The notes under the pieces were generated by a model. The model made no database searches. It was not told where the DNA came from and saw only the letters and a program-made list of their open reading frames with translations. The translations under genes were made by a program, and so were the position numbers. From an uncultured Chryseobacterium sp. (GTDB taxonomy: Bacteria > Bacteroidota > Bacteroidia > Flavobacteriales > Weeksellaceae): a stretch of DNA of 64,000 bases. Within the stretch, counting starts at the first letter, position 1. The number at the start of each line of letters is the position of its first letter. The DNA is taken from NCBI RefSeq assembly GCF_913777465.1, contig NZ_CAJYRQ010000027.1. One strand, given 5' to 3'. Positions 1,153-21,326 of the stretch are shown here, piece by piece.

Positions 1153-2182
1153 ATAATTCTTCTTTAATAATTTTAATAAAATCATTCACCGGTTCATCTC
1201 CTGTATTCCAGGAGGTAATGAGGCGGATTGCTGAAAACCGGCTGTCTATCCTTTTCCATACATAAAATTCGAATTTTTCCGACAGCTTTTCGATCAGTTC
1301 CTGGCTGAGGATCGGAAAAATCTGATTGGTGTACGTATCGGATAAGAACTGCACTCCCCTTTCCTTCATGGCATTTTTCATTTTCATCGCCTGCTGATTT
1401 GCGTGTCTGGCCAGATCAAAATACAGGTCGTTTTTCATCAGCTCAAGAAACTGGATCCCAAGCAGTCTCCCTTTTGCCAGCAGCGCACCTTTCTGTTTGA
1501 TGTTAAATGCAAAATCCTGTTGCAGCTCAGGGTTATTGATTACGATGGCCTCCCCGATCAATGCGCCGTTCTTCGTTCCTCCCAGGTAGAAAATGTCTGT
1601 CAGTTCAGCAACTTTTTCCAGCGTCAGATCACTGATTTCCGAAGTTAGCCCATGCCCCAGCCTCGCTCCGTCCATAAACAGATACAGGCGGTTTTCTTTA
1701 CAGAATTCGGAAAGCTTTTCCAGTTCCTGTAAGGTATAAACCGTTCCCAGTTCCGTTGAATTGGAAATATAGACCAGCTTCGGCATCACCTGATGCGGAA
1801 CATTGCGGTGGCTTTCCAGTACCGGAATGATATCTTCAGGAGTTAGTTTCCCATCCTCCTTTTCAATGCCCAGAATCTTATGGCCGGTAGCTTCAATGGC
1901 CCCGGTTTCATTATTCAGGATATGTCCCGTTGCTGCAGAAATTGCACACTGATAAGGCCTTAAAACCGAAGAAATTACAATAAGGTTGGCCTGGGTACCT
2001 CCCGAAACGAAATAGATTTCGGCATCGGGGCTTTTCATCTTTTCTTTGATTAAAACTTTGGCCTCCCGGGAATATTCATCTTCTCCGTAACCCGCCTGCT
2101 GATTGAGATTATTTTCTAAAAGTGCCTGTAAAATATCAGGATGACAACCTTCCGAATAGTCGTTTTTGAATGAAAATTTCAT
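1151..2182 (-). CDS. ltaE: Low-specificity L-threonine aldolase (PLP-dependent, beta-eliminating lyase family)
   Basis: SFKNDYSEG N-terminus, YGED, GGTQAN, FMDGARLG and GGTKNG (PLP lysine) motifs. Confidence 0.88.
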   Translation of the reverse strand: MKFSFKNDYSEGCHPDILQALLENNLNQQAGYGEDEYSREAKVLIKEKMKSPDAEIYFVSGGTQANLIVISSVLRPYQCAISAATGHILNNETGAIEATGHKILGIEKEDGKLTPEDIIPVLESHRNVPHQVMPKLVYISNSTELGTVYTLQELEKLSEFCKENRLYLFMDGARLGHGLTSEISDLTLEKVAELTDIFYLGGTKNGALIGEAIVINNPELQQDFAFNIKQKGALLAKGRLLGIQFLELMKNDLYFDLARHANQQAMKMKNAMKERGVQFLSDTYTNQIFPILSQELIEKLSEKFEFYVWKRIDSRFSAIRLITSWNTGDEPVNDFIKIIKEEL

Positions 2183-2267
2183 AAGGTAAAATTAAAAAAA
2201 GTTAACCGAAACATCCTTATTTATTGGCAATAATTTGTTAGATTTGTCACGAAAAGCATCTAACATT

Positions 2268-2921
2268 TTGAAGACAACATTAACGGAAGAAAATTATCTG
2301 AAGGCTTTGTTTCACGTGGTGGACCAGGATGGAAAGGTAACGATTAACGAGCTGAGCAAATTTTTAAACGTAAAAATGCCGAGCGTTAATAACATGATGA
2401 AGAAATTTGCCGAGAAAAACTGGGTAATCTACGAAACCTACAAGCCGCTGAAAGTAACGGAAAAAGGCCGCCGGGAAGCAGCGCTGGTTGTAAGAAAACA
2501 CCGCCTGACGGAAATGTTTCTGGTAAAAAAAATGAATTTCGGCTGGGAAAATGTTCATGAAATTGCCGAGCAGCTGGAGCATGTGCACTCTACCGTTTTC
2601 TTCGATAAGATGGACGAAATCCTGGATTACCCCAAATTCGATCCGCACGGTGAACCGATCCCGGACAAAGACGGCAATATCATCGCACAGGATTTACAGA
2701 AACTCAGCCATTGTAAAGTCGGGGAAACCGTCATTTTCACTTCGGTTACCCTTTCCGATGATGCCTTTTTAAACTACCTGACTGAAAGAAATTTACTGCT
2801 GAATAAAAAAATCAATATCCTTAAGATTGAAAGCTTCGACAAATCGTTTACCGTGGAAGTAGACGGAAAACAGGAAATCCTAAGCCGTAAAGCCACGGAT
2901 AAAATACTGGTGAAGAAATAA
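2268..2921 (+). CDS. mntR: DtxR/MntR-family metal-dependent repressor with C-terminal FeoA/SH3-like domain
   Basis: TEENYLKA, HTH, RKHRLTEMFL, AEQLEH and DPHGEPIP motifs. Likely TTG start at 2268. Confidence 0.88.
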   Translation: MKTTLTEENYLKALFHVVDQDGKVTINELSKFLNVKMPSVNNMMKKFAEKNWVIYETYKPLKVTEKGRREAALVVRKHRLTEMFLVKKMNFGWENVHEIAEQLEHVHSTVFFDKMDEILDYPKFDPHGEPIPDKDGNIIAQDLQKLSHCKVGETVIFTSVTLSDDAFLNYLTERNLLLNKKINILKIESFDKSFTVEVDGKQEILSRKATDKILVKK

Positions 2922-3022
2922 GACTATGTATTGAGTGTACTTAAAGCTCTATATGATTATCTGTGAAAGTCTGTGAAATCTACGATAGATTCTTTATTTA
3001 TGCATACCTCCAATACTATGTT

Positions 3023-3113
3023 GAGATTCCTTCGGAATGACAAATGTAGTGTTGAATTATGATTCACTCCACTGTAAGGAATGGCTGTCCGGTGGCTGAG
3101 GCCCTCGAAGCCA
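3023..3113. repeat. REP-like intergenic elements (gagattccttcggaatgaca; ggtggctgaggccctcgaagcca)
   Basis: gattcc-ttcggaatgaca matches the gattcctacggaaagaca arm at ~23005-23022. Lies between convergent genes. Confidence 0.5.
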
Positions 3114-3149
3114 GGTAATTATCTGTGAAAATCCGTGCAGATTTGTGGT

Positions 3150-4328
3150 TTATTTTAGACCTGCCTTTAATACTTCAGAAACCTTCTCTATTTCCTCCGT
3201 CGTATTGAAATAATGAGGTGAGAGCCGTACAATGCCGTTGATATTCTTGTTGGTAAAGTCGATCAGTGCAGAGTTTTTGTAAGTCACGGAAAAGTATACG
3301 TTATTTTTTTTTAAGATTTTCTGAATATTTTCAAGGTCGCCGTCTGGACCGGAAAAAGTAACGATGCTGCTCAGCCGGTTGCCCCAATCCCAAACGCTGA
3401 AACCGCTCTCTTTGAGATTTTCCCGCAATTTCCGGGACAAGCTTTGGTTATATTTTTCGATGGCATCCATTCCGACAGCGTTGGCATATCCGATGGCGTA
3501 TTTTAAACCCAGCATGGAAGCGTACGACATTTCCCAATGCTCGAAGCGTTTTGCGGTTTTGAACAATTCATAATCGTTATATTCCGTCCAGTCCGCCCCT
3601 CTCATGTCCAGCAGCAGCGGTGCGTAGTCCTGCTCCAAGATCCGGTCTGAGACGTACAGAAATCCCGTTCCCCTCGGTCCGCGCAGAAACTTCCTCCCGG
3701 TTGCGGTAAGGAAATCGCAGCCTATTTTTTCGACATCTACCACCATCTGCCCTACTGACTGGCAGGCATCCACCAGATAGAGAATGTCATGCTCCCTGCA
3801 TATTTTTCCTACGGCTTCCACATTCTGGATCAGCCCGGAATTGGTCGGAATATGTGTAACGGCAATAAGTTTCGGGTGATGTTCCCTGATCAGCCGTCCG
3901 AGGTCTTCCAGGTCCAGTTCGTGATCCGGCAGATTCTTCATTCTAATCACCTTCACTCCTACTTTCTTTTGCAGGGAAATAAACGTAATCTGATTGGAAA
4001 TATAATCGTCCGCTGTCGTAATAATTACGTCGCCATCCCTGAAAATAATACCCGACAAAGCTTTGCTGTAAGCTTCGGTGGCACTTGTCATAAAAGCCAT
4101 ATTGGCTGGTTTGGCGTTAATCAGTTTTGCCGATTCACTGTAAAATTCTTCCAGCACATCCGCATTCATGTTCGCCACATCATATCCTCCGGAGCGTTCT
4201 TCCAGCTTTAAATAATCGACTACTGCATCGGTTACGATATCCGGCATTAAAGAAGAACCGGCATTGTTAAGAAAAATTTTGCCGTCTCCAAGGCCGCGGG
4301 TATCCTGTATTATTTTATCGATGTTCAT
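3150..4328 (-). CDS. Class V aminotransferase / PLP-dependent lyase (cysteine desulfurase-like fold)
   Basis: FLNNAGSS, VDACQSVG, ATGRKFLRGPRG (PLP Lys) and VRLSPHYFN motifs. Start ATG at 4328. Confidence 0.85.
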   Translation of the reverse strand: MNIDKIIQDTRGLGDGKIFLNNAGSSLMPDIVTDAVVDYLKLEERSGGYDVANMNADVLEEFYSESAKLINAKPANMAFMTSATEAYSKALSGIIFRDGDVIITTADDYISNQITFISLQKKVGVKVIRMKNLPDHELDLEDLGRLIREHHPKLIAVTHIPTNSGLIQNVEAVGKICREHDILYLVDACQSVGQMVVDVEKIGCDFLTATGRKFLRGPRGTGFLYVSDRILEQDYAPLLLDMRGADWTEYNDYELFKTAKRFEHWEMSYASMLGLKYAIGYANAVGMDAIEKYNQSLSRKLRENLKESGFSVWDWGNRLSSIVTFSGPDGDLENIQKILKKNNVYFSVTYKNSALIDFTNKNINGIVRLSPHYFNTTEEIEKVSEVLKAGLK

Positions 4329-20059: not shown

Positions 20060-20063
20060 TATA

Positions 20064-20095
20064 AAAGCGGTCCTTATGGATCGCTTTATTTTTTT
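20064..20095 (+). terminator. Intrinsic terminator after MATE
   Basis: aaagcggtcc-ttat-ggatcgcttt followed by a T-rich tract. Confidence 0.75.
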
Positions 20096-20166
20096 ACTTT
20101 AATCAGTCTGTAGACATTCGTATTTTATCTTATGAAATTTTTTCTTATTTTTAAATAAACATTTAA

Positions 20167-20472
20167 ATGATGAGAACAGTTGTCTGGACAGAAACTGCTG
20201 AAAAGTCTTACAAAGATAATTTGGAATACCTTTCGGAATATTGGTCAAAGAAAGAAATCAGGACCTTTATGGATAAGGTTGATGAAGCTATATCCAACAT
20301 TATGATATATCCTTTTATGGGCAGCATTTCTAATGACCATATCCAGTACAGAAAATATTTAATTGTCCCACAAATATATTTATATTACCGCATAACACCG
20401 GAAAAAATATACTTGGTAGCCTTTTGGAACAACTTCCAGAATCCGGACCATTTAAAGGAACTTCTCACGTAA
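20167..20472 (+). CDS. Type II toxin, RelE/ParE family
   Basis: VVWTETAEKSY, I..YPFMG, YRKYLI, YLYYRI and LVAFWNNFQNP pattern typical of Bacteroidetes RelE/ParE toxins. Confidence 0.82.
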   Translation: MMRTVVWTETAEKSYKDNLEYLSEYWSKKEIRTFMDKVDEAISNIMIYPFMGSISNDHIQYRKYLIVPQIYLYYRITPEKIYLVAFWNNFQNPDHLKELLT

Positions 20473-20748
20473 TTCTTTGTTCACCTCTGCATGTTCACGA
20501 TATCTTCCATTCTCAATATCGCTCTCAGACTGCTCTAGTTCCAACAGCAATGCTTCACGAGGGGATAATATTTTAGCCAAAACCAGCATCTCATCCGGTG
20601 TAAAAGATTGGGCATTCAGTTTTCTGTAAAACGTAGCAGGCGCTATTCCGGTCTTGTCAATAAGATAATTCTTTTTATAAGGGCTTGCGTTAATAAGCGC
20701 ATCTATTTCATTTACAACCTTCTTATAATTTAAAATTTCCTGTATCAT
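20452..20748 (-). CDS. Putative antitoxin (HTH-like N-terminus, acidic C-terminal toxin-binding helix)
   Basis: KTGIAPATFYRKL (HTH-like), then ELEQSESDIENGRYREHAEV, which resembles the 'DI..GR...H.EV' tail of RelE/ParE-associated antitoxins. Confidence 0.68.
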   Translation of the reverse strand: MIQEILNYKKVVNEIDALINASPYKKNYLIDKTGIAPATFYRKLNAQSFTPDEMLVLAKILSPREALLLELEQSESDIENGRYREHAEVNKELREKFL

Positions 20749-20778
20749 TTTTGATATTTTTTCATCTCGTAATTAATA

Positions 20779-20810
20779 CAAATATAAGAAAGAATTATTT
20801 AGATCTCAAA
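20779..20810 (-). promoter_or_regulatory. Consensus Bacteroidetes sigmaA promoter for the antitoxin gene
   Basis: On the minus strand, TTTG (20810-20807), 20 nt spacer, TATATTTG (20786-20779) match TTTG-N19-21-TAnnTTTG. Confidence 0.65.
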
Positions 20811-20819
20811 TTATCCTGT

Positions 20820-21326
20820 TTAACCAGAAATCCTTTTCCCCAAAATCACCAGCGTCCTCTCTACTCCATCCAGCACGGCAACATCCGGAAAGACGCCCCA
20901 GTCTTCGAAACCGAAGTGGCGGAATAATTTCAGGCTGGGCTCATTATGCAGAAAGATAAATCCCAGTAATGTTTTCACGTCAAACTTCGGCGCATTATTG
21001 ATACAATATTGCAGGACTTTTTTTCCGTATCCCTTTCCGCGGGAATTCTCGGCCATGTAAATGCTCAGCTCTACGGTTCCATTATAAGCCGGCCTTCCGT
21101 AAAATGAAGAAAAGCTGACCCATCCCAATACGGCACCCTGCTGATCTTCGATCATCCACAGCGGCCTTCGGTCAGGCGTATGTTCATGAAACCACCGAAC
21201 CCTGCTTTCCACGGAAATATCTTCCGTATCGGCAGTGACCATTCTTGAAGGAATGGTAGAGTTATAAATTTCTACGATTTTGGTTAAATCTTCCGGCGTT
21301 GCATTCCTGAATTTCAGTTCTTCCAT
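20820..21326 (-). CDS. GNAT N-acetyltransferase (YncA/MnaT/phosphinothricin acetyltransferase-like)
   Basis: IYNSTI..RMVTAD, FYGRPAYNGTVELSIY, RGKGYG and NEPSLKLF..FGF motifs. Confidence 0.88.
   Translation of the reverse strand: MEELKFRNATPEDLTKIVEIYNSTIPSRMVTADTEDISVESRVRWFHEHTPDRRPLWMIEDQQGAVLGWVSFSSFYGRPAYNGTVELSIYMAENSRGKGYGKKVLQYCINNAPKFDVKTLLGFIFLHNEPSLKLFRHFGFEDWGVFPDVAVLDGVERTLVILGKRISG

Follow-up and report, generated by a model that had tools for sequence, protein, structure and literature searches.

The window analysed here, a stretch of 64,000 nucleotides from an uncultured Chryseobacterium sp. (contig NZ_CAJYRQ010000027.1), contains a ParE-type toxin gene and a gene for a helix-turn-helix (HTH) protein that face each other head-on and share their last codons, an arrangement that breaks the co-directional-operon rule of protein toxin-antitoxin (TA) pairs. 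We consider it probable that this pair is a functional tail-to-tail type II TA module, in which the HTH protein is the cognate, neutralising antitoxin, each gene is served by its own promoter, and transcription of the antitoxin gene likely dampens the toxin in cis. The features of the module and of its immediate surroundings are the following.

20064 to 20087, both strands: bidirectional terminator of the host, a hairpin (A-tract/stem/T-tract) that follows the MATE gene, dG -14.3 on the plus and -9.6 on the minus strand
20100 to 20829: inserted two-gene module, comprising both promoters and both genes, delimited by homology breaks with respect to the closest relatives
20146 to 20153, plus strand: -7 box of the toxin gene, TATTTTTA, with one mismatch to TAnnTTTG, 13 nt before the ATG
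20167 to 20472, plus strand: ParE-fold toxin gene, 101 aa
20452 to 20472, both strands: shared 3' overlap of 21 nt, TTAAAGGAACTTCTCACGTAA, encoding the last 6 residues and the stop of both proteins
20452 to 20748, minus strand: antitoxin gene, 98 aa, Xre-like HTH plus C-terminal tail
20779 to 20810, minus strand: antitoxin promoter, with the -7 box TATATTTG at 20786-20779 and the -33 element TTTG at 20810-20807, spacer of 20

Both open reading frames lie exactly where an earlier sequence-only reading had placed them (20167-20472 on the plus strand and 20748-20452 on the minus strand), and the 21-nt tail-to-tail overlap that it had described is present. Since the 3' ends are fixed by stop codons, the length of the overlap is unambiguous and independent of the choice of start codons. 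Within it, the codons of one frame are exactly antisense to those of the other, the toxin ending in ...LKELLT-stop and the antitoxin in ...LREKFL-stop, and each TAA is the complement of a Leu codon (TTA) of the partner gene.

The toxin, which had been assigned from its sequence to the RelE/ParE superfamily, turned out more precisely to have a ParE fold, composed of two N-terminal helices, an antiparallel sheet and a C-terminal helix. It matched the Pfam family ParE_toxin (PF05016) over residues 5-87 with 28.9 bits (cut-off 23, E 1.7e-6), and a search of the PDB with a profile built from four close relatives of the toxin matched exclusively ParE structures. The AF2 model (pLDDT 88) gave E. coli O157 ParE2 (5czf/5cw7) as the best Foldseek match, with TM 0.78-0.87 and rmsd 1.7, followed by PfiT, V. 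cholerae ParE2, Mesorhizobium ParE, M. tuberculosis ParE1 and Caulobacter ParE1. The top 12 matches were all ParE-type chains from TA complexes, with query-normalised TM values of 0.71-0.81 and target-normalised values up to 0.87. In contrast, TM values with respect to the RelE-type nucleases YoeB, YafQ and HigB2 were only 0.5-0.65 (0.54-0.58 for HigB2, as compared to 0.81 for ParE2). Because the best superpositions are with ParE and those with RelE-type ribonucleases are clearly lower, the toxin is a member of the ParE branch, and gyrase would be a possible target. Its C-terminal motif, FWNN[YF]QNP, is specific to one clade of Bacteroidota.

The AF2 model of the antitoxin (pLDDT 89) is all-helical and contains six helices: residues from about 1 to 60 form an Xre/Cro-like HTH, and two C-terminal helices span residues 63-79 and 86-97. 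Foldseek matches over about 55 residues were individually weak (E 0.4-4) and formed a consistent list, namely SinR, E. coli HigA (2icp/2ict), HipB, C.AhdI, 434 Cro and Aca11. In Pfam and NCBIfam the protein matched no family, HTH matches being sub-threshold only and the Pfam search giving no match to a ribbon-helix-helix (RHH) family; a comparison of the antitoxin profile with PDB sequences returned only noise. Clustering of the family at 90% identity gives about 400 clusters, nearly all annotated as 'hypothetical protein' and mostly from Chryseobacterium, and at 50% identity there remain 253 representative clusters. The tail of the antitoxin carries a motif of the toxin-binding type, E-x-D-x-x-x-G...H-x-E-V...LR-x-K-F. 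The 35 C-terminal residues align with small non-HTH antitoxins encoded upstream of the toxins that form the sister clade of the present one, in Mucilaginibacter, Cyclobacteriaceae, Ohtaekwangia and Chitinophaga, with which they share the motif S-[IL]-x-x-[GA]-x-x-[QD]-x-x-x-G...H-x-x-V-M-x-E-[LFY]-R-x-K-[YF].

The genome from which the window derives (G000) contains four loci that pair the two families, two convergent and two canonical. The second convergent locus lies on contig C51 (L013) and shares 58% toxin identity and 43% antitoxin identity with the window. At the canonical loci, on contigs C78 (L014) and C105 (L015), the HTH gene comes first: homologues of the antitoxin, at 35-46% identity, are located directly upstream of ParE-like genes, with which they are co-oriented and overlap. 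The presence of both arrangements in one genome makes cross-talk possible, and a within-strain comparison of the two architectures as well. Across the 151 family genomes, most of the further HTH homologues are antitoxin-first partners of ParE-like genes, and the remaining ones are orphans beside decayed toxin remnants. As a separate observation, at locus L049 an orphan homologue of the HTH antitoxin (1501-1806, plus strand) is followed by an ORF of 425 aa (1975-3252, plus strand) instead of a ParE gene; this ORF has a Walker-A-like GKST motif in its N-terminal region and could be a different toxin partner.

Decay of the module follows an unequal course. Three to five loci have a broken toxin beside an intact antitoxin: in Chryseobacterium sp. 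POE27 the toxin gene carries a frameshift and a stop, and the metagenomic contigs L047 and L048 are in the same state. The reverse state, an intact toxin with a broken antitoxin, was not seen among the clade loci. Loss of the toxin first is the asymmetry expected of a TA pair. In L048 (SRR33674923_94344, around 2905-2915) the toxin frame is interrupted at a G7/C7 homopolymer run, so that the break could be an assembly or sequencing error, decay, or the sign of a slippage-prone tract. Taken together, the paralogues, the family relatives, the tail motif and the toxin-first decay say, as comparative evidence, that the HTH protein would be the antitoxin of the pair, and the earlier description of the minus-strand gene as antitoxin-like agrees with the membership of its relatives in canonical operons. 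Since both lineages normally have other partners, the case for cognate binding rests on the conserved linkage and on the tail motif.

Both genes are under strong purifying selection. The dN/dS ratio was 0.06-0.11 for the toxin and 0.03-0.10 for the antitoxin (0.03-0.11 overall, and 0.06-0.10 in the least saturated pairs).

A survey of the orientation of homologous pairs, as the sequence-only reading had proposed, found that the convergent layout recurs, the HTH relatives being otherwise mostly in antitoxin-first operons. The search yielded fifteen loci of the convergent clade. In 13 of them, among these the window, both gene ends can be read; the others are POE27 (L027) and a decayed remnant in G212. 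The 21-nt overlap, in the same length and the same antisense register, is present in all of the 13 readable loci. In POE27 the broken toxin left no measurable ORF end, and the overlap region is nearly base-for-base that of L020. The hosts are Chryseobacterium, Riemerella and a Flavobacteriaceae metagenome-assembled genome (MAG), protein identity across the clade goes down to 44-58%, and the toxin and the antitoxin are strictly adjacent in every intact locus. The loci are distributed over about seven genomic contexts:

MATE/GNAT: the window and relatives 82% identical to it
aldehyde dehydrogenase/band-7: second copy in the genome of the window (contig C51), C. taichungense, C. salviniae and POE27
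DUF808/dnaJ: G209, G309 and the second copy of C. taichungense
lipoprotein/isochorismatase: Riemerella columbina
G086: one of two Riemerella-type contexts
Flavobacteriaceae MAG: one locus context
metagenome contig: one locus context

The same structure was found in R. columbina DSM 16469, C. taichungense, C. salviniae, the single contig of G086 and Logan contigs. Because an identical layout and a 21-nt overlap recur in 13 loci from independent assemblies, chance is excluded, and the conservation of the layout means that it is a genuine architectural variant, rather than an accident of rearrangement or a misassembly. The prevalence of the convergent module is low, with 7 carriers among the 201 genomes sampled in the genus, and a plasmid search gave no homologues of the toxin or of the antitoxin. 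Some loci carry additional small genes. In L020 and L021, an ORF of 62 aa (3138-3326, minus strand) with an Arc/RHH-like character and weak matches to ParD_like, RHH_5 and Arc is located directly upstream of the convergent antitoxin and co-oriented with it, with no terminator between the two; it is absent at the orthologous site on contig C51. In G309 (L088; 2150-2560, minus strand) an extra Xre-like ORF of 136 aa lies between the convergent antitoxin and dnaJ; G209 and G218, whose loci are syntenic in other respects, lack it.

Phylogenetic trees of the two proteins were compared. The convergent antitoxins fall on one side of a branch with 100/100 support, separated from 21 co-oriented or orphan relatives, and the convergent toxins form a clade with 95/88 support. 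A single convergent branch or clade in both trees means that one origin is sufficient. The two trees disagree, however, on the relatives of the module. The convergent toxins are sister (100/100) to toxins with an upstream non-HTH antitoxin and are far from the toxins that partner the co-oriented HTH antitoxins, and the usual partner of the antitoxin lineage is a distant ParE; therefore, a toxin of one ParE lineage appears to have been joined to the HTH scaffold of the antitoxin of another. As judged from these comparisons, the data indicate a single, chimeric origin of the convergent module. Both trees contain the same subgroups (window and L044; L011 and L012; L013, L020 and L021), although the deeper branching differs. 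The last helix of the antitoxin (residues 84-98, partly encoded by the overlap) is 32% identical to antitoxins of the toxin lineage, as compared to 21% for the HTH relatives, over just 15 columns, whereas the tail as a whole shows the opposite trend, being closer to the HTH relatives. Recombination or co-adaptation could each account for the likeness of the last helix.

In the window, the module lies between genes for a MATE protein and a GNAT protein. Homology with the closest relatives, G192, G173 and G166 (81-90% identity), ends at 20099-20100 and restarts at 20830-20832. In G152 the site is empty and consists of 42 nt containing the MATE stop, one bidirectional hairpin and the GNAT stop; G192 and G166 have at the same site an unrelated ORF of 164-165 aa, and G212 has decayed fragments of the same module, in which both genes are damaged. 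The MATE/GNAT intergenic site (20060-20830; L079-L087) is a variable hot spot in the genus, with remnants also in G173 and G198. The homology breaks and the variability of the site in relatives together show that the segment 20100-20829 is an insertion between the host terminator and the GNAT stop. As a consequence, the GNAT gene is left without a terminator, and its transcripts should read into the co-oriented antitoxin gene. Moreover, a transcript on the antitoxin strand would now have to pass both the toxin gene and its promoter before reaching a terminator.

An invertible segment was considered and rejected, since no inverted repeats bracket either single gene. The sole notable inverted repeat (20136-20159 and 20773-20796), with 79% similarity across 24 nt, encloses the entire module and is promoter-like; this similarity could reflect the consensus of the two promoters, an operator that they share, or the way in which the module originated.

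The hairpin at 20064-20087 has the tails ATTTTTTT on the plus strand and TATATTAT on the minus strand. A minus-strand (antitoxin) transcript would traverse the entire toxin gene before reaching it, and would meet no terminator-like site earlier. The sequence-only reading had seen a terminator separating MATE from the toxin; the hairpin is indeed there, but it is the MATE/GNAT terminator of the host and not a part of the module, as the empty site of G152 shows. A bidirectional terminator upstream of the toxin ATG was found in 7 of the 8 loci examined, at a distance of 60-103 nt in the window, L013, L020, L021, L011 and L012 and of about 20-45 nt in L048; none was found upstream of the toxin in L023. 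In the aldehyde dehydrogenase context the upstream gene is divergent, and for this reason the hairpin cannot serve it; its position is consistent with a role in ending transcripts that come from the antitoxin side. Inside the module, a scan for hairpins and T-runs found no conserved terminator, in line with the earlier remark that the tail-to-tail overlap leaves no room for a terminator between the genes; individual loci have weak hairpins here and there (such as that of L020 at 2591-2634, minus strand).

The -7 consensus of Bacteroidetes promoters is TAnnTTTG. The antitoxin gene of the window has a perfect box 30 nt from its ATG, preceded by the TTTG element at the spacing of 20 that had been reported from the sequence, and a perfect box is located 20-30 nt before the antitoxin ATG in 9 of the 9 loci with sequence there. 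The box of the toxin gene lies 4-20 nt before the ATG across loci, and this proximity implies a nearly leaderless toxin mRNA. It is perfect (TATTTTTG or TATATTTG) at the corresponding position in six loci (L013, L020, L021, L011, L023 and L084), whereas the window, L044 and L012 each deviate from the consensus at one base; the only candidate found in L048 has one mismatch as well and is poorer. A conserved palindrome that both promoters share, and that might act as an operator, was not found; a possible element, ATGAT-NN-ATCAT, occurs in Riemerella-type antitoxin promoters only. An Rfam search of the module gave nothing above noise.

These observations suggest how the module may work. Each gene would be fired from its own Bacteroidetes-type promoter, the box of the toxin being the weaker one in the window copy. 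Since the two genes share 21 nt and no conserved terminator lies inside the module, their transcripts have to be complementary at least in part, over 21 nt or more. Each transcript probably crosses the partner gene, and that of the antitoxin may extend up to the host terminator at 20087-20064; read-through from GNAT would add to antitoxin transcription. Collision of polymerases and pairing of complementary RNA would then bias expression towards the antitoxin, on top of neutralisation at the protein level; such a bias would agree with the better consensus match of the antitoxin promoter and with the read-through from GNAT in the window. Independent regulation of the two genes, and antisense or collision control, which the sequence-only reading had proposed, may follow from this anatomy. 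Rho-dependent termination is a real alternative to long transcripts, as it could stop untranslated antisense extensions early. As for the proteins, the HTH of the antitoxin is predicted to bind DNA and to repress one or both promoters, and its C-terminal helices to bind and neutralise the toxin. A stronger form of this proposal, which we regard as possible though rather doubtful, is a hybrid of types I and II, in which the mRNA of the antitoxin would itself be an antitoxin acting by antisense pairing or interference, the protein would be a type II antitoxin, and the ratio of the two products would be set by head-on transcription. In such a hybrid, the 21 nt encode the C-terminal helix of the toxin and the binding end of the antitoxin, and the determinants of toxicity and of neutralisation would therefore be mutationally interlocked.

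It may be objected that the genes do form a genuine TA pair whose overlap is nevertheless the frozen accident of one ancestral rearrangement and plays no regulatory role, separate promoters and protein neutralisation being sufficient and the overlap persisting because any indel would damage both proteins. The single origin of the convergent clade fits one event, the double-coding constraint alone could hold the 21 nt in place, and no operator or antisense-specific element was found in the module. On the other hand, the layout has outlasted divergence to 44-58% identity and a spread over about seven contexts without reverting and without gaining an internal terminator, and expression of both genes necessarily produces transcripts with complementary 3' ends. 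We judge this explanation unlikely.

Considerably less credible is the idea that an orphan or domesticated ParE-like protein simply lies beside an ordinary HTH regulator, even if the antitoxin belongs to no curated family and the toxins paired with its closest relatives are of another clade. The linkage is strict in every intact locus, the two trees recover the same subgroups in spite of their different deeper branching, the tail contains an antitoxin motif, and the toxin decays alone beside an intact partner; furthermore, only 107 nt of non-coding DNA lie on the 5' side of the toxin gene, without any other candidate antitoxin ORF. An artefact of assembly or annotation, such as a local misassembly or an inversion error, could be imagined for a draft genome of 109 contigs, and the sequence-only reading had itself named misassembly as an observation that would overturn it. 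Given the recurrence of the structure in complete genomes and independent assemblies, with both ORFs intact and under purifying selection, this explanation is ruled out for practical purposes. The preferred reading is still that of a functional tail-to-tail type II module whose antitoxin transcription would dampen the toxin.

In TADB 3.0, type II TA systems are defined as two tandem genes on the same strand, co-transcribed, with the antitoxin first (PMC10767807), and TADB 3.0/TAfinder assume that type II pairs are co-directional and co-transcribed (PMC10767807). The present pair departs from this definition, its genes being on opposite strands and convergent in all of the 13 readable loci, although the conserved pairing across about seven contexts is what functional type II linkage predicts. 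In the full-text literature searched, which included the PanAT paper, no convergent type II module was described, the coverage of this search being incomplete and its result no proof of absence. A conserved, selected head-on ParE module means that the co-directional assumption is not universal. When this assumption is built into TA-finding software, convergent pairs are systematically missed; both proteins of the module are annotated merely as hypothetical. The module also defines an unannotated family of HTH antitoxins and documents the swapping of partners between ParE lineages.

Among known systems, the module resembles those of the ParDE type (PaaA2-ParE2, 5czf/5cw7; Caulobacter ParDE1, 3kxe; M. 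tuberculosis ParDE1, 8c24) in the ParE fold of the toxin (PF05016), in being a small chromosomal module of two genes, and in an antitoxin whose N-terminus is of a DNA-binding type and whose helical C-terminal tail resembles those that wrap around ParE. It differs from them in that the genes converge and share 21 nt at their 3' ends, where ParDE genes form a co-oriented operon headed by the antitoxin, and in that the toxin has its own promoter. Moreover, the antitoxin contains an Xre/Cro-like HTH, whereas ParD is an RHH protein and PaaA2 is domain-less. With HigB-HigA the module shares the combination of an Xre-type HTH antitoxin with a toxin of the RelE/ParE superfamily, and a toxin that comes first on the map; however, HigBA genes are co-oriented and co-transcribed, while here they are convergent, and the toxin is ParE-like and not HigB-like.

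Convergent genes are known from the type I systems txpA/RatA, bsrG/SR4 and yonT/SR6 of B. subtilis, where the transcripts pair at their 3' ends and this pairing promotes decay of the toxin mRNA (PMC5848175). Their antitoxins are non-coding RNAs, and their toxins are small, hydrophobic membrane peptides. In the present module, by contrast, the antitoxin is a protein of 98 aa whose ORF is conserved under selection, the toxin is a soluble ParE-fold protein of 101 aa, and the module has no Rfam match; antisense action would be a hypothetical added layer.

Head-on transcription is also found in convergent R/M genes of restriction-modification systems and in prgQ/prgX of pCF10, where interference and antisense RNA set the ratio of the products. 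The likeness is that of addiction-type or bistable modules with opposing genes. The proteins, however, are unrelated, and the opposing genes of those systems are usually separated by a terminator or a non-coding gap and do not share codons. In type II systems the ratio is assumed to be set by translational coupling, proteolysis of the antitoxin and autorepression; the module described here offers a compact natural system in which to ask whether interference and antisense pairing can hold a toxin in check in place of the coupling provided by an operon.
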